Of a stretch of 64,000 nt of DNA, positions 35,246 to 41,659 are shown in pieces. The DNA is from Enterobacteria phage GEC-3S. The first letter of the stretch is position 1, and each line of letters opens with the position of its first letter. Both the position numbers and the translations under genes were made by a program. Below the pieces are notes generated by a model. That model made no database searches and had not been told where the DNA came from. It worked only from the letters and a program-made list of their open reading frames with translations. The stretch is from the sequence record HE978309; one strand, 5' to 3'.

Positions 35246-35275
35246 ATATTAATACCCCCGTTATTCAGTGTCAAC
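35246..35275 (-). promoter_or_regulatory. Sigma70-like early promoter with GGGGGTAT...ATACCCCC palindrome
   Basis: TTGACA - 17 nt - TAATAT. Confidence 0.5.
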
Positions 35276-35493
35276 TACTTTTTAATGACAAGTTCGAATT
35301 TTGCTACCTTGCGTCCGCGTTTATTGAAAGCAACCCACGGACGGTTTTCAATGTAGAACAATTCTTCGCCAATAATGAATACTGGCTGATTGTAAAGTCG
35401 ACCCATCAGGTCACGTTGACGAATAGTAGTAGATTCGTATACTTCGCCCACTACAAAGTGTTTGTTGATAGAGTCGGTGCAAATAAATTTCAT
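35275..35493 (-). CDS. Hypothetical early protein (72 aa)
   Basis: ORF with own promoter and GGAGAATCAAAATG. Confidence 0.55.
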   Translation of the reverse strand: MKFICTDSINKHFVVGEVYESTTIRQRDLMGRLYNQPVFIIGEELFYIENRPWVAFNKRGRKVAKFELVIKK

Positions 35494-35877: not shown

Positions 35878-36354
35878 TTAATCATGACCGTGATTTGCAA
35901 TATCCGCTCGCGTCTTATCTTTGTGATTTCCTACGTCAAAAACACGATAACCATTTTCACGCAAAACTTTAATCACTTCTGGGTTATCCTCAAAGACTCC
36001 GACAACTTCATCTTTATCAAAGGATTTAATTACCTCTAATTTGATGTGATAGTCTTTACGGGAGTCTGTGCGGCCTCTCATAAAGATTTTATCAAAACAC
36101 ACCCCGTTAGAAATTAACCAATCAATTGTTTCCATGTAAGCATGTGAACTTCGTCCGGTGAGGATGTAAATCAAATGCCCGTTATCGGAAAGAGCATTAA
36201 TAACACGAATTACATCGTAAATGGGGGAATCTCCCCCACATGCCTTGTTATATTCGATCCATGACTCAACTTTATCAAGATTTTCGGTTGGCATCTTTGT
36301 TAGTCGATGTGTTGGATCTGTGATCGTAAAATCTAAATCGACAAAATATATCAT
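35878..36354 (-). CDS. HAD-superfamily phosphatase-like protein
   Basis: N-terminal FVDLDFTITD (DxDxT motif I); overlaps nrdB stop. Confidence 0.6.
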   Translation of the reverse strand: MIYFVDLDFTITDPTHRLTKMPTENLDKVESWIEYNKACGGDSPIYDVIRVINALSDNGHLIYILTGRSSHAYMETIDWLISNGVCFDKIFMRGRTDSRKDYHIKLEVIKSFDKDEVVGVFEDNPEVIKVLRENGYRVFDVGNHKDKTRADIANHGHD

Positions 36355-37511
36355 AGATATTTCCCGAATCGGTTGTAGTCATCGTCTGTTAAATCGGTAT
36401 TAACCTGAGATACCAGATACATAATCTCTACTTCCTGCGCTGCATTCTGTACTTCGTCAGAGTTCAACCATTTACGCATCCACGGTAACGGATGACGACG
36501 AACACTAAACGGGCTTTTCAGTCCGGCAGCACGCATACGGGAATCTGCCAGGTATTCTACATAGGTTTTCAGAATTTCCGGTGACAGGTTAGGAATTGCC
36601 CCCATTGCGAATAGGTGGTCTACCCATTCTTTTTCTTGCTCGACAACATCCAGAAAGATTTTCGTTGCTTCGCCTTCAAGTTCTTCCGCAATCTGTTTCC
36701 ACTCATCACCATCAACCCCCGTTTGCCATTGACGAATAATGTATTGTGTGCCTTTTAAGTGAAGTTGTTCATCACGCGCAATAAATTTCATGATCTTCGC
36801 GTTACCTTCCAGTAAACCACGTTCGGCAAAGCTGAAAGTACATGCAAAGGACACATAAAAACGAATTGCTTCCAGTGCATTGACGCAGTGTGCACACAGA
36901 TAAATCGAAGCCATCAGATCTCGTTTTGTATCTTCAAAAAATCTTCTTGCATCATCTAATGCTGTCTGGTCGTCTCGTTCTTCCCAATAGCGGAGATCTT
37001 CTTTTGCATTCTCATACTTACGAATCCAATAAAGAACATCATCATAATATTTCCCGATAGATTCCGCTCGCTTCATGATAGCAGGGTTATCGATGATCTG
37101 GTCGAACTCACTAGCCGGATCAATGAAACAGTTACGCATAATGTGTGTATAGCTTCGGCTATGAATCGTTTCGCTGAATGTCCATGTTTGCAACCATGTA
37201 TCGAGAGTTGGATCAGATACAATTGGACCAAATGCTGCGGACGGTGCGCGTCCTTGAATAGAATCAAGTAATGTCTGATACTTCAAATTTTCGGTAAAGA
37301 AACGCTTTTCAACGTCACCCATATTAAGATATTGAATGCGGTCGGTTGCAAGTGAAATTTCTTCGGGGCGCCAAAAAAATGACAATTGCTTTTCGATCAG
37401 TTCTTCAAATACTTGATGACGCTGAATATCATAGCGAGCGATACCCAACCCACTACCCAGAAACATTGGTTCGTTCATAATATCAACATGTTCGCGGTTA
37501 AATACGCTCAT
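36351..37511 (-). CDS. nrdB: Ribonucleotide reductase beta subunit
   Basis: Class Ia R2 features (FSFAERGLLEGNAKIMKFIARDEQLH; di-iron ligand pattern); 386 aa; T4 order. Confidence 0.93.
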   Translation of the reverse strand: MSVFNREHVDIMNEPMFLGSGLGIARYDIQRHQVFEELIEKQLSFFWRPEEISLATDRIQYLNMGDVEKRFFTENLKYQTLLDSIQGRAPSAAFGPIVSDPTLDTWLQTWTFSETIHSRSYTHIMRNCFIDPASEFDQIIDNPAIMKRAESIGKYYDDVLYWIRKYENAKEDLRYWEERDDQTALDDARRFFEDTKRDLMASIYLCAHCVNALEAIRFYVSFACTFSFAERGLLEGNAKIMKFIARDEQLHLKGTQYIIRQWQTGVDGDEWKQIAEELEGEATKIFLDVVEQEKEWVDHLFAMGAIPNLSPEILKTYVEYLADSRMRAAGLKSPFSVRRHPLPWMRKWLNSDEVQNAAQEVEIMYLVSQVNTDLTDDDYNRFGKYL

Positions 37512-37526
37512 TAATTCACCTCACTA

Positions 37527-37694
37527 TCACTTTTTAACACAAAAGAACTTAGTATTTCTGTTAACTTCGCTATCCTGCTGCAATTCCTGCACAGCTTCAA
37601 AACAATTTTGATATGATGAAAACTCTACGCTGGTAACAGTTCCTTTATTATATACGCCTACGCTAACGGAAAGCAATAACCATAATGTAGCCAT
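37527..37694 (-). CDS. Small protein with N-terminal hydrophobic segment (55 aa); tandem paralog
   Basis: MATLWLLLSVSVGVYNKGTVTSVEFSSYQNCFEAVQELQQDSEVNRNTKFFCVKK; TAATG coupling. Confidence 0.4.
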   Translation of the reverse strand: MATLWLLLSVSVGVYNKGTVTSVEFSSYQNCFEAVQELQQDSEVNRNTKFFCVKK

Positions 37695-37867
37695 TAGTTC
37701 ACCTTTTGTTTTTCAACGCAATATAGATTCATAAAGCGTTTATTGTCTTCGCGGATAATCTCGCGAGCTTTAACGCAATCCTGCTTTGTTGCAAATTCAA
37801 TGCTTGACATATTTCCGTAATTATACATTGAATTGCTGATTGCAATCAATAACCATACAGTAGCCAT
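37694..37867 (-). CDS. Small protein with N-terminal hydrophobic segment (57 aa); tandem paralog
   Basis: MATVWLLIAISNSMYNYGNMSSIEFATKQDCVKAREIIREDNKRFMNLYCVEKQKVN; TAATG coupling. Confidence 0.4.
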   Translation of the reverse strand: MATVWLLIAISNSMYNYGNMSSIEFATKQDCVKAREIIREDNKRFMNLYCVEKQKVN

Positions 37868-38055
37868 TATTCGACAACCTCAAAGCATTTATCATCAGGA
37901 AGAATAGCCCATTCTATGCCGTATTCATCCTCAACGTAGTAGCAAGCCCCATCATGTCGAGCATCATATTCATCACGTCGAGCATCATATACATCACCGA
38001 CAACAAAGCTATCAGCTAGCTCAAAATCTACAGCAACACATTTTAATTTGGTCAT
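37867..38055 (-). CDS. Hypothetical acidic small protein (62 aa)
   Basis: Internal ATG at 38055 with GAGGA RBS; ORF-track ORF extends to 38118. Confidence 0.45.
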   Translation of the reverse strand: MTKLKCVAVDFELADSFVVGDVYDARRDEYDARHDGACYYVEDEYGIEWAILPDDKCFEVVE

Positions 38056-38084: not shown

Positions 38085-38118
38085 GAATTATAGCGGGGAT
38101 TTCTCCCCGCGTCAACAC
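38085..38118 (-). promoter_or_regulatory. Sigma70-like promoter with embedded terminator-like hairpin after nrdA
   Basis: TTGACG - GCGGGGAGAAATCCCCGC - TATAAT on minus strand. Confidence 0.45.
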
Positions 38119-38123
38119 TTATT

Positions 38124-40367
38124 TTACAGCTTGCAAGATGAGCACTCGCTAGAGTCTTCCGTACCATCTGCACCGTCGCGAACGTTCGCATAATACAGGG
38201 TTTTCAGACCGTAATATTGAGCAAACAACATATCATCTAAAACATCAGCAATATCGACTTTACCCGTCTTATAAGTGCTTGGGTCGTAGGATGTATTGGA
38301 ACTAATCGCCTGGTCTACAAACTTCTGCATGATCGCTGCCAGTGTCAGATAAGGCTTGTTACCTTTCTTGATCAGTGTCCAAAGCAGGTCAATAACATCA
38401 GCATTATTCTCTACGTTCGGAATAACCTGATTAAATTGCCCTTCTTTCGATCCTTTAACCGATACAATCCCGCGAGGCGGTTCAATACCGTTTGTGCTGT
38501 TAGACACCTGAGAAGACGACTCACAAGGCATCAGCGCCGAAAGCGTACTGTTACGAATGCCATATTTTTTCAGGTCTTCGCGCAGTTCTTCCCAATCCAT
38601 CTCATACACCGGATCAACCAGTTCATCTACTGTCTTTTTGTACCAGTCGATAGGAAGTTCACCGCGACCATAGCGTGTTTCGTGCATCAGTTCGCAAGCA
38701 CCCTTCTCTTTTGCTAGCTGCACACTAGCTTTAATCAGAGCATATTGCAAGCGTTCAAACGTTTTATGCGTAAACTCGTTAGCGTCTTCATATGTGAAGA
38801 AATTATCTGCTAGATATGATGCAAAGTTAGTCACACCAACACCCAGAGAGCGACGTTTTTTGGCTGTCAGAGCTTGTTCTACAGGATAATCCTGGTAATC
38901 TAACAGGTTGTCAAGTGCACGCACCATAACCATAGCAATGCGTTCTACTTCTTCCATATTTTCGATATCAAAGTTTCCTAAAACATATGCTGCCAAAGTG
39001 CATAGGCTGATCTCTGAATCATCACGACCCATCGGTTTTGTAGGCAGAGCAATTTCACAACACAGGTTGGATTGTTTAATCGGTGCTACATTACGAATAA
39101 ACGCCCCGTGATTGTTCATGTTGTCTGTGAACGTTGGGTAGATTCGACCAGTGTTAAAACGTTCAATTGCCACCGCTAAAAACAGGTCTTCGGCTTTAAC
39201 ACGAGTTTTACGAACACTCGGATCTTTTTCCAGTTTTTCGTAAAGCTGGCGGAAACCTTCCTCATCTCGGAAGTATAGATCCCACAACAAGCCACCTGCA
39301 ACATCTGGACTAAACAGAGTAATGTAATCCCGTTTAAGGAATCGCTCTACCATCAGGTTATTAATCTGTACGCCGTAGTCAAGATGGCGAATGCGGTTAT
39401 CTTCCACGCCCTTATTGTTCTTTAACACAATCAGACTTTCAAACTCTAAATGCCACATTGGGTAATAGAGAGTCGCCGCCCCGCCACGAATACCGCCTTG
39501 TGAGCATGACTTAACGGCAGTCTGAAAATGTTTCCAGAATGGGATAACGCCAGTATGACGAACTTCACCATGCCCGATCTTAGATCCTTCCGCGCGAATC
39601 ATGCCAGCGTTGATACCGATACCCGCACGCTTGCTAATATACTTGATGATTGCATTTGCTGTTTCGTTGATGCCCTGCAATGAGTCATCACTTTCAATCA
39701 CCACACACGAACTAAATTGGCGTGTTGGGGTACGCACACCAGCCATAATCGGAGTAGGCAGAGAGATTTGCTTATTCGAAACAGCATTATAAAAATCAAT
39801 CACATGTTCAAGTCGATTTTCTGTCTCTTCTTGATGCAAGCACATACCGATCAGCATATACGCAAATTGCGGTGTTTCGATGATTTTCTTAGTGCTGCGA
39901 TCCTGAACAAGATATTTCTCTTTTAACTGCATCGCACCAGCATAGGTCATTTTAAAATCAAGTTTATGGTCGATGAATTTCTCCAGATATTCCACTTCTT
40001 CACGGGAATACTTTTGCAGAATTTCACGATCATATTTTCCGGTTGCAATATTACGCTCAATATGGCTGTAAAAATCAATCGGTTGGAATTGACCGTATAC
40101 TGATTTGCGAAGCGCGAACATTGCAAGGTTACTTGCTACATATTGATAATCGGGTGTTTCTACAGTAATGTTATCTGCTGCGACCTTAATCAATACTTTC
40201 TGGATATCATTGGTAGACATACCTTCTGTCAGAAGTGGTTCAACCATATCAAACAATTCATATGGATCAACGTTATGACCTTCGGCTGCCGCTTCCAGAA
40301 TTTTCATTACTTTTTCTTTTTCAAACGGAACAGTCAGACCGGAAGACTTAACAACATTTTTAATCAT
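38124..40367 (-). CDS. nrdA: Ribonucleotide reductase alpha subunit
   Basis: 747 aa; class Ia R1 features (ATP-cone N-terminus, NLCCEI, C-terminal CSSC); GTGAGG RBS. Confidence 0.95.
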   Translation of the reverse strand: MIKNVVKSSGLTVPFEKEKVMKILEAAAEGHNVDPYELFDMVEPLLTEGMSTNDIQKVLIKVAADNITVETPDYQYVASNLAMFALRKSVYGQFQPIDFYSHIERNIATGKYDREILQKYSREEVEYLEKFIDHKLDFKMTYAGAMQLKEKYLVQDRSTKKIIETPQFAYMLIGMCLHQEETENRLEHVIDFYNAVSNKQISLPTPIMAGVRTPTRQFSSCVVIESDDSLQGINETANAIIKYISKRAGIGINAGMIRAEGSKIGHGEVRHTGVIPFWKHFQTAVKSCSQGGIRGGAATLYYPMWHLEFESLIVLKNNKGVEDNRIRHLDYGVQINNLMVERFLKRDYITLFSPDVAGGLLWDLYFRDEEGFRQLYEKLEKDPSVRKTRVKAEDLFLAVAIERFNTGRIYPTFTDNMNNHGAFIRNVAPIKQSNLCCEIALPTKPMGRDDSEISLCTLAAYVLGNFDIENMEEVERIAMVMVRALDNLLDYQDYPVEQALTAKKRRSLGVGVTNFASYLADNFFTYEDANEFTHKTFERLQYALIKASVQLAKEKGACELMHETRYGRGELPIDWYKKTVDELVDPVYEMDWEELREDLKKYGIRNSTLSALMPCESSSQVSNSTNGIEPPRGIVSVKGSKEGQFNQVIPNVENNADVIDLLWTLIKKGNKPYLTLAAIMQKFVDQAISSNTSYDPSTYKTGKVDIADVLDDMLFAQYYGLKTLYYANVRDGADGTEDSSECSSCKL

Positions 40368-40413: not shown

Positions 40414-40429
40414 TGGGGGCTTTCGCCCC
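40414..40429 (-). other. GC-rich stem-loop between td and nrdA (GGGGGC-TTTC-GCCCCC)
   Basis: Perfect 6-bp GC stem with tetraloop; same motif near 27652 and 52063. Confidence 0.4.
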
Positions 40430-40435
40430 CTTTGT

Positions 40436-41659
40436 TTATACTGCCATTTGAGCGGTGATCGCTGGATGGCTTTGATAGTTGTGAATTTTAAAATCTTTCG
40501 GAGTCTTTGTCAATACCTCATCTAAAGATTTAAATTCCGGCAACTCAATTGTTGGTTTATCAAACGGAACACGGCTTAACTGTTCCATAACTTGATCAAA
40601 ATGGTTTTTGTAAATGTGGCAATCCCCACACTGATAAACCAGTTCGCCAACTTCTAACCCGCAAATCTTCGCGATGATATGCGTTAACAGTGCATAGCTC
40701 GCTACGTTGAACGGATTCCCTAAAAAGAGATCATTCGAACGCATGAAAAATAAACAACTCAATTTGTTGTCGTTGGAAACATAAAACTGTACCATCGGAT
40801 GACATACACCTAACACAGCATTATGCGTTTCCTGTACGTTCCATGAATCAATGATAATACGACGACTATACGGATCATTCTTGATCATGTCAATAACTTT
40901 TTGTAACTGGTCTTCCCAAATCTTCGGGCGATAGACATATTCTTCATCGTCTTTAGTGCTTGATGTGTCTACGTCCATACTAACAAACATCGTGGTATCC
41001 GGTGCTATAATATCCCCACCCAGATAATCACTATCAAGCAGATAACCGAAATAACCATCATCTACCCATTCCTGGAATCCCCACAAGCAATATGCATCAT
41101 TAACAAAATTAGATTGAGTCTTCCAGTGGTCTGCTACCAGAATATAATCAAACTCTTCATAACGCATACCACGCCAGATAGCACATAAACGGTCTTCTGT
41201 GTCATTGGTTGGCGTAAAGTCTTCTACCCACGGGTGCTTAAATGTATGTGTATATTTGCTCTTAACGCGCTTAATTTTGATTTCACCATGTGGATGAATC
41301 GGTTTGCGTCGCCACGCCATACCATACATATTGCCGACATTATAACCATTGAATCGCAAGGGATTCTTTTCTTTCATATCAAGACAGTTGCCGCGCCAAA
41401 TATCAAAGGCTTCCTCGTCAAACTTGCCGCGTGTAATTTCCTGTAAGCGACGGCGGTCAAGTGATCCCTCCATAAACCATAGCAATTCGCCAATCACAGA
41501 GGCTGTAGCCATCTTTTTAGTGGTCAGTAATGGGAAACCCTTGCTTAAATCAATTCGCATCTCTGCGCCGAATTTAGAGAGCGTACCTACCCCCGTGCGG
41601 TCTTCACGAGGACAGCCATTATCAAGAACATCACGCAACAGTTTCAAATATTCTTTCAT
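40436..41659 (-). CDS. td: Thymidylate synthase with large internal insertion
   Basis: ThyA motifs (REDRTGVGT; FPLLTTKK; ELLWF; DPYSRRIII; CHPMVQFYV; FMRSNDLFLGNPFNVASYALL) in one 407-aa ORF; about 120 extra residues mid-protein. Confidence 0.9.
   Translation of the reverse strand: MKEYLKLLRDVLDNGCPREDRTGVGTLSKFGAEMRIDLSKGFPLLTTKKMATASVIGELLWFMEGSLDRRRLQEITRGKFDEEAFDIWRGNCLDMKEKNPLRFNGYNVGNMYGMAWRRKPIHPHGEIKIKRVKSKYTHTFKHPWVEDFTPTNDTEDRLCAIWRGMRYEEFDYILVADHWKTQSNFVNDAYCLWGFQEWVDDGYFGYLLDSDYLGGDIIAPDTTMFVSMDVDTSSTKDDEEYVYRPKIWEDQLQKVIDMIKNDPYSRRIIIDSWNVQETHNAVLGVCHPMVQFYVSNDNKLSCLFFMRSNDLFLGNPFNVASYALLTHIIAKICGLEVGELVYQCGDCHIYKNHFDQVMEQLSRVPFDKPTIELPEFKSLDEVLTKTPKDFKIHNYQSHPAITAQMAV

Follow-up and report, generated by a model that had tools for sequence, protein, structure and literature searches.

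The stretch between nrdA and nrdB in Enterobacteria phage GEC-3S is an ordinary accessory-gene slot of a T4-like phage. In the window analysed (64,000 nucleotides of sequence record HE978309), this slot is occupied by three small genes, designated here ORF3, ORF2 and ORF1, whose positions are given in Table 1. We consider it probable, though by no means certain, that these genes make up a cassette of ORFans served by a promoter-early stem-loop (PeSL), in which ORF1 and ORF2 code for soluble proteins of a beta-beta-alpha-beta fold that act as accessory binders, perhaps of a host factor, and are not parts of ribonucleotide reductase. The genes themselves are not new, since all three are already present in the databases, where no function is assigned to them.

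Table 1. Features of the nrdA-nrdB region, with positions numbered along the window.
Feature	Position	Strand	Remarks
ORF1	37527..37694	(-)	55 aa, MATLWLL start, phrog_5579 member, orthologue of RB49p231
ORF2	37694..37867	(-)	57 aa, MATVWLL start, ORF1 paralogue, orthologue of RB49p232
ORF3	37867..38055	(-)	62 aa from ATG, acidic, phrog_16302, orthologue of RB49p233
nrdB	36351..37511	(-)	context; start 15 nt downstream of ORF1
nrdA	38124..40367	(-)	context; end 68 nt before ORF3; TAA stop 38126-38124
td	40436-41659	(-)	context, precedes nrdA in transcription order
Tandem duplication in ORF3	37950..37997	(-)	21-nt unit, 2.3 copies
PeSL-type element	38087..38115	(-)	-35 TTGACG 38115-38110; hairpin 38109-38094; -10 TATAAT 38092-38087
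ORF1 5' end TAATGGCTACATTATGGTTATTG...	37671..37696	(-)	direct repeat of ORF2 5' end, 37844-37869

All of these features lie on the minus strand, and the order of transcription is td, nrdA, the promoter with its hairpin, ORF3, ORF2, ORF1 and nrdB. The sequence-only reading of this DNA had described two ORFs of 55 and 57 aa joined by TAATG, both beginning with MAT(L/V)WLL, and this description is borne out, the interval 37527-37867 extending from the stop of ORF1 to the start of ORF2. The ORF3/ORF2 junction is likewise a TAATG, so that at both junctions the stop and the start codon share one base, and a Shine-Dalgarno-like purine tract is found ahead of each of the three starts. The TAATG overlaps would couple ORF3, ORF2 and ORF1 translationally, and the transcript that carries them probably reads on into nrdB.

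The element that precedes the cassette consists of a TTGACG-17 nt-TATAAT promoter, an 11/12 match to the sigma70 consensus, whose -35 box is located 9 nt past the nrdA stop. Its 17-nt spacer (CGGGGAGAAATCCCCGC) is a hairpin, CGGGGA-GAAA-TCCCCG, with a GAAA loop and a predicted stability of -15.1 kcal/mol. An AT-rich stretch (AAAATAAGTG) lies ahead of the -35 box, while GTGAGGA and the ATG of ORF3 follow downstream. Seven Krischvirus genomes share an identical hairpin and -35 box, and their -10 boxes differ only by a single change in Makalu3. A scan of the whole window revealed seven consensus promoters with a GC-hairpin in the spacer, all of them on the minus strand. The earlier suggestion that a third small gene follows a promoter with an embedded hairpin holds as far as the element is concerned, but the third gene comes first, and not last, in the order of transcription.

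The two MAT-starting genes had also been taken for tandem paralogues lying between nrdB and nrdA, with conserved cysteine positions, and both points were confirmed. The products of ORF1 (MATLWLLLSVSVG...) and ORF2 (MATVWLLIAISNS...) share 38% identity and 75% positives (E=6e-16), their two cysteines align, and each matches phrog_5579, a PHROGs v4 family of unknown function, over profile positions 1-52 of 52 (E=6.7e-24 and 6.8e-24, respectively). The same two cysteine columns are occupied in all 46 family representatives described below. ORF1 and ORF2 arose by tandem duplication of one phrog_5579-type member; a third phrog_5579 copy was not found within the window.

A search with the 901 bases around ORF1 and ORF2 returned 57 records of Escherichia and Shigella phages with 90-97% identity, and every one of these that was examined further belongs to Krischvirus, the RB49-like genus. 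Identity of the region to Krischvirus genomes amounts to 95-97%. In RB49 the counterparts RB49p231, p232 and p233 lie between nrdB and nrdA and are annotated as "hypothetical", as are the counterparts of ORF1-ORF3 in more than 50 genomes, and the layout of Phi1, E26 and Makalu_003 is the same as that of RB49. A literature search on the locus tags and the phrog identifier found no mention of these genes.

Given that ORF1 and ORF2 are as short as 55-57 aa, that no function is known for them and that some relatives lack them, they could be regarded as chance open frames or decaying remnants that give rise to no protein product. The pattern of substitution, compared between the window, RB49, Phi1, E26 and Makalu_003, argues against this. 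Variable sites are distributed over codon positions 1/2/3 as 9/4/17 in ORF1 and 2/0/8 in ORF2, pairwise dN/dS ranges from 0.09 to 0.46 and from 0 to 0.14, respectively, and when the two most divergent sequences are compared, synonymous changes are in significant excess in both genes (Fisher p=4e-7 for ORF1 and 2e-5 for ORF2). At the protein level ORF1 is the more variable paralogue of the two, with 85-98% conservation across the genus against 98-100% for ORF2. In addition, the start, the stop and the TAATG coupling are kept in the orthologues examined, unrelated phage families hold homologues with the same invariant residues, and the predicted fold is a confident one. The sequence-only reading had proposed comparative genomics as a check, with lack of conservation of the frames in relatives counting against the genes; more than 50 genomes proved to keep the reading frames, and dN/dS lies far below 1. 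As far as sequence evidence goes, the notion of chance frames is already refuted by these conservation data and appears exceedingly improbable, and ORF1 and ORF2 are to all appearances true genes under purifying selection.

To delineate the family, 1.84 billion representative proteins were searched with a profile, which gave 49 matches, and 46 of these, small proteins of mostly 51-76 aa, were kept as the family; three long matches (P0018, P0040 and P0058) turned out to be repeat proteins and were discarded as spurious. Forty of the 46 representatives match phrog_5579 and four match phrog_3766. Although the overall identity within the family is only 30-40%, F25, C31 and C52 are invariant in the alignment, W5, L7 and G18 are nearly so, and each of the 46 proteins contains exactly two cysteines, in the same two columns. 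Scans of ORF1, ORF2, ORF3 and the 46 family members against Pfam and NCBIfam yielded no functional annotation, and in PHROGs the same set matched only families without an assigned function. Neither ORF1 nor ORF2 has a match in Pfam or NCBIfam, and these two collections contain no model of the phrog_5579 family.

Outside Krischvirus the family reaches Autographiviridae and two Drexlerviridae, and it is also present in a jumbo phage of Erwinia and in phage contigs from metagenomes. Homologues in unrelated phages were confirmed with profile E-values of 1e-21 to 4e-7, and include an unannotated 56-aa ORF of the Koutsourovirus Enterobacter phage SDFMU_EhYP, bas02_0072 of the Drexlerviridae phage JeanPiccard, Motto_70 of Pseudomonas phage Motto and a gene of the jumbo Erwinia phage Hallingskeid. 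The neighbours of these homologues are always small early or accessory genes, and in three metagenomic phage-like contigs the family gene sits amid small genes with no known function. Within the stretches examined, the homologues outside Krischvirus are present as a single copy with no adjoining nrd genes, and among the loci examined the tandem pair occurs in Krischvirus only. A search for related loci that started from one distant family member gave no match.

The hydrophobic N-termini of ORF1 and ORF2 had previously been read as a signal peptide or membrane anchor. If so, the proteins would be exported or anchored in the membrane, their cysteines could form a periplasmic disulfide, and a role in the envelope, e.g. 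in superinfection exclusion or the timing of lysis, could be envisaged. Apart from the hydrophobic segment itself, such a reading may draw on the two cysteines that are invariant in 46 of 46 representatives, as a Cys pair that never varies is met more typically in disulfide-bonded proteins outside the cytoplasm than in proteins within it, on the small residues S11 and G/S13, which could fit the -3/-1 positions of a signal peptidase site, and on the loosely similar DUF1482/YebW proteins, which are labelled 'secreted protein' by some sources. However, the apolar core is too short. A signal would call for a hydrophobic core of about 10-15 residues and a membrane span for one of at least 17-19 residues, but in the 46 representatives the median length of the longest stretch of strictly apolar residues is 7, and that of the longest uncharged stretch 13.5. 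Kyte-Doolittle hydropathy over the best 19-residue window has a median of 0.95 and peaks at 1.43, short of the 1.6 that is customarily required of a membrane span.

Bacterial Sec signals usually possess a basic N-terminal region and a length of at least 15-18 residues, but the net charge ahead of the core is zero in 38 of the 46 proteins, negative in four and +1 in the remaining four, both ORF1 and ORF2 begin with MAT, and the small residues (S11 in 41/45, G13 in 35/45), while suited to a cleavage site, would imply a signal only about 13 residues long. Moreover, export signals usually drift in sequence, while the N-terminus, with W5 and L7 nearly invariant at such a low overall identity, varies less than most other parts of these proteins. 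Finally, residues 5-11 are modelled by AlphaFold2 as a beta-strand with pLDDT >90. Since the apolar run is short, the start mostly lacks a net charge, the N-terminus is conserved and the model places a strand there, the call of a signal peptide or anchor is not supported and export seems unlikely; most likely, the predicted structure suggests, these are very small soluble proteins whose hydrophobic N-terminus is a beta-strand buried in the fold and not an export signal. To correct a 'signal peptide' assignment that is plausible but in all probability mistaken has a modest practical value, but because automated pipelines tag similar small proteins as 'secreted protein', the same mislabelling may be common.

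The AlphaFold2 model of ORF1, computed from the 46-sequence alignment, has a mean pLDDT of 94.6 and a pTM of 0.74. It predicts a beta-beta-alpha-beta fold, with strands at residues 5-11, 20-25 and 48-54 and a helix at residues 28-39, the hydrophobic N-terminus forming strand 1. Each of the two proteins would most likely fold in the cytoplasm as such a compact domain. According to the column statistics of the alignment, C31, A34 and I38 form an apolar side of the helix, one face of strand 3 carries residues 48 and 50 and C52, and positions 4-8 are hydrophobic on both faces. From these sequence patterns, the invariant C31 would point inwards from the helix and the invariant C52 inwards from the last strand. 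As a single helix can cover only one hydrophobic face of the sheet, the other face, formed by W5/L7 or by L6/I8/V10 together with V53 and F25, may serve as a surface for dimerisation or for binding of a target.

A fold search of the PDB with the ORF1 model gave no match with E <1 (best E 1.5), and a sequence-profile search of the PDB with the family gave no match either (best E 0.3). In the BFVD, meanwhile, many uncharacterised small phage proteins share the predicted fold with TM values of 0.7-0.84, and the hosts concerned include Pseudomonas, Burkholderia, Citrobacter, Aeromonas and Lactobacillus. The point of lasting interest is a widely distributed, uncharacterised family of mini-proteins in which the Cys pair never varies and for which a structural relative is lacking. 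Being spread over at least three phage families, with a confident predicted fold and two cysteines throughout, phrog_5579 may merit a small experimental look.

Regarding function, ORF1 and ORF2 could be small early binding proteins that modulate a host factor, either in host takeover or in counter-defence. The proposal follows in a generic way from their small size, the early-type promoter and their accessory status, and a host-factor-binding role should be taken as a weakly supported guess.

The position of the genes between nrdA and nrdB, their probable co-transcription with nrdB, a translational coupling that suggests matched production and the invariant Cys pair would all be compatible with accessory subunits of ribonucleotide reductase; a heterodimer might, for example, pool 2+2 cysteines as a metal/Fe-S centre or as a redox pair for NrdB/NrdA, in the manner of YfaE/NrdH. 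Yet phage JSE keeps nrdA and nrdB without ORF1 and ORF2, which makes a dedicated role in ribonucleotide reduction unlikely, and FL20 and G37-3 do without ORF2. The homologues elsewhere are single and, in the stretches examined, not beside nrd genes; Drexlerviridae are not known to encode any ribonucleotide reductase. The two cysteines are about 20 residues apart and constitute neither a CxxC motif nor a four-Cys ferredoxin signature, and neither Pfam nor NCBIfam gave a match to the thioredoxin, glutaredoxin, ferredoxin or flavodoxin families. With the genes missing from JSE and the homologues lacking an nrd context, an accessory role in ribonucleotide reductase was rejected as very unlikely.

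A more ambitious proposal, which must be called improbable, is that phrog_5579 represents a new structural class with a chemically active Cys pair, and that a dimer with four cysteines neutralises a host factor or defence system. The possibility of a new structural class arises because phrog_5579 is without a neighbour in the PDB. Were the proposal true, ORF1 and ORF2 might form a heterodimer, made in matched amounts and carrying a metal/Fe-S site or a redox switch, and the duplication in Krischvirus might have widened or split the range of targets.

The slot itself differs even between close relatives. In JSE, ORF3 is followed by a homing endonuclease gene and both ORF1 and ORF2 are lacking. 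G37-3 carries a truncated ORF3, a single copy of the family and, before nrdB, a 179-aa ORF in which HNH- and AP2-like motifs can be recognised by eye. FL20 likewise has a single phrog_5579-family copy, whereas in Delraymugoa a DNA methyltransferase is inserted between nrdA and ORF3. The single copy of FL20 and G37-3 consists of the upstream region and the first 22 nt of ORF2 joined to the body of ORF1, and its sequence marks it as the outcome of an event in which the repeated 5' ends (TAATGGCTAC..TATGGTTATTG) recombined and ORF2 was lost. A 44-aa ORF2/ORF1 chimera is also present in a metagenome. Judging from these genomes, ORF1 and ORF2 are dispensable accessory genes, being absent from natural isolates. 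For comparative work the isolates offer natural knock-outs, JSE of both genes and FL20 and G37-3 of one.

ORF3, the first gene of the cassette, matches phrog_16302 (E=5e-40) and was found only within the 57-record RB49-like group, i.e. it is an ORFan confined to Krischvirus. The 21-nt duplication in the window amounts to an in-frame insert of 7 aa, and the orthologues sampled are 55 aa long. Among the matches listed, those that cover the query fully span 879-881 nt against its 901 nt. By this comparison the 7-aa insert is not seen in the related records. An AlphaFold2 prediction for ORF3 from the single sequence, without an alignment, reached a pLDDT of 43.8 and is unusable.

With respect to size and lifestyle, ORF1 and ORF2 resemble p56 of phi29, an inhibitor of UDG, and the antitoxin Dmd of RB69, both of which are early accessory alpha/beta proteins of about 55-60 aa. 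The structural similarity of these two proteins to the ORF1 model is not significant (E >3, TM ~0.4), so that the analogy is one of scale and lifestyle only. The proteins of the DUF1482/YebW group (PF07358) are alike in size and layout: they open with a hydrophobic segment, followed by a Gly-rich turn, a strand and a helix starting with T-x-x-x-C, and their last strand, as in phrog_5579, contains a cysteine. It is the junction of strand and helix that the local profile match spans. DUF1482, however, possesses four conserved cysteines and a conserved C-terminal extension, against two cysteines in phrog_5579. For this comparison a YebW query sequence was used, which matched DUF1482 at E=5e-36, after which homologues were collected and aligned. 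With hhalign, only 19 columns of the phrog_5579 family and DUF1482 were aligned (E=0.0018, probability 15%), and the DUF1482 Pfam model matched neither ORF1 nor ORF2 and only one of the 46 family members, at no better than E=0.11. The profile-profile similarity is too weak for a claim of homology with DUF1482/YebW.

In T4 the same slot is likewise filled with non-essential inserted genes. The earlier statement that nrdA and nrdB adjoin each other in T4, and that small genes of this kind are missing there, is right in its second part only: mobE and nrdB.1 are located between them, so that nrdA and nrdB are not adjacent, but genes of the present kind are indeed missing, as the phrog_5579 family profile gave no match to the T4 region. 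The presence of mobE has its parallel in JSE and G37-3, which carry homing endonuclease genes in the same slot. The product of nrdB.1, on the other hand, is an unrelated protein of 83 aa that has no sequence relationship to ORF1 or ORF2. T4 nrdB is said, to go by the title of Tseng et al. 1990, to have its own promoter.

The closest published counterpart of the promoter-hairpin ahead of ORF3 is the PeSL of RB49 and phi1, described in the PeSL cassette papers of Arbiol et al. 2010 (PMC2839356) and Comeau et al. 2014 (PMC4122927). PeSLs are promoter-early stem-loops found just upstream of ORFans, in about 50 copies per genome, with an AT-rich stretch upstream, and they have been proposed to shuffle ORFan cassettes by recombination (PMC2839356; PMC4122927). 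Their consensus in RB49/phi1 is TTGACA-N17-TATAAT (PMC4122927), a G-rich/C-rich stem-loop that separates the -35 box from the -10 box is among the two commonest arrangements (PMC2839356), and strong promoter as well as terminator activity has been shown for PeSL211/210 and PeSL206/205 (PMC2839356). By analogy with other PeSLs, the hairpin would probably attenuate or terminate the transcripts arriving from nrdA, and the promoter would probably restart early transcription by the host RNA polymerase.

Since neither PMC2839356 nor PMC4122927 mentions the nrdA-nrdB site by name in its main text, the membership of this site among the PeSLs rests on sequence features, and in these the element fits the published description: a near-perfect sigma70 promoter, a stem-loop in the spacer and an AT-rich stretch upstream, with the nrdA stop before it and a Shine-Dalgarno sequence and an ORFan after it. 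The wider setting is similar too, the genome being of the RB49 type, the element being repeated and the slot differing between close relatives. What distinguishes the nrdA-nrdB element is its location within a block of nucleotide-metabolism genes and not in a large hyperplastic region. The nrdA-nrdB gap of RB49-like phages can thus be viewed as a plastic, PeSL-served slot, which, depending on the relative, holds ORFans, homing endonucleases or a methyltransferase.

The gap between nrdA and nrdB, which in GEC-3S harbours the paralogous mini-protein genes ORF1 and ORF2 (phrog_5579) as well as the acidic ORF3, differs in content between close relatives. In phage JSE, a homing endonuclease is found where ORF1 and ORF2 would be, and a DNA methyltransferase is inserted in Delraymugoa. 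Phages FL20 and G37-3 each carry one chimeric copy, which in the case of G37-3 is accompanied by an ORF bearing motifs that resemble HNH and AP2. The metagenomic protein P0014 (44 aa) is also a natural chimera, composed of residues 1-30 of ORF2 and residues 42-55 of ORF1; it is a second type of recombinant between the two paralogues.

The phrog_5579 family is also represented in Enterobacter phage SDFMU_EhYP, where an unannotated ORF lies within a 1.1-kb annotation-free stretch running from an AAA ATPase gene to a DNA polymerase gene. With a profile E of 1.3e-21, this ORF clearly belongs to the family.

Features of GEC-3S and of the SDFMU_EhYP locus (L002)
Feature	Position	Strand	Description
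Small ORF	35275-35493	minus	72 aa; near ORF3 and weakly similar to it
Tandem duplication	37950-37997		21 nt, 2.3 copies, 92% match; inside ORF3
Perfect hairpin	40415-40430	minus	GGGGGC-GAAA-GCCCCC; between td and nrdA
td	40436-41659	minus	thymidylate synthase, 407 aa
-35 boxes of hairpin promoters	starts 38115, 27192, 26797, 25633, 22358, 22112, 19980	minus	
Family member	L002:2644-2814		unannotated ORF, 56 aa, MNTVWLLIAISSGSYNRGNVSSVEF...; Enterobacter phage SDFMU_EhYP, OQ884031.1

The duplication inside ORF3 adds seven residues in frame (VYDARRD/EYDARHD). It appears to be absent from relatives, since the fully covering matches among those listed span 879-881 nt, compared with 901 nt here, and the sampled ORF3 orthologues are 55 aa long. 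ORF3 also shows weak similarity (pairwise E 0.003) to the nearby 72-aa ORF, the two having the motif K-x-x-C...F-V-V-G-(D/E)-V-Y in common. Distant paralogy between small ORFans could account for this likeness.

The hairpin separating td from nrdA shares its GAAA loop with the hairpin following nrdA, and probably acts as a further terminator or stabiliser between genes. The product of td itself is covered by the Pfam model in two stretches, the second of which aligns residues 250-407 with profile positions 110-266. Such a two-part match implies that the central part of the enzyme carries an in-frame insert of very roughly 130 aa. The td of RB49 is of like length (410 aa, vs 407 aa here).

Seven promoters of sigma70 consensus, in which a GC-rich hairpin serves as the 17-18 nt spacer, were located on the minus strand of the window. 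The spacer hairpins are mostly of the form GGGGATC...GATCCCC, with energies of -12.6 to -15.1 kcal/mol. These putative promoters agree with the published PeSL (promoter-early stem-loop) elements of RB49 and phi1 (PMC2839356).
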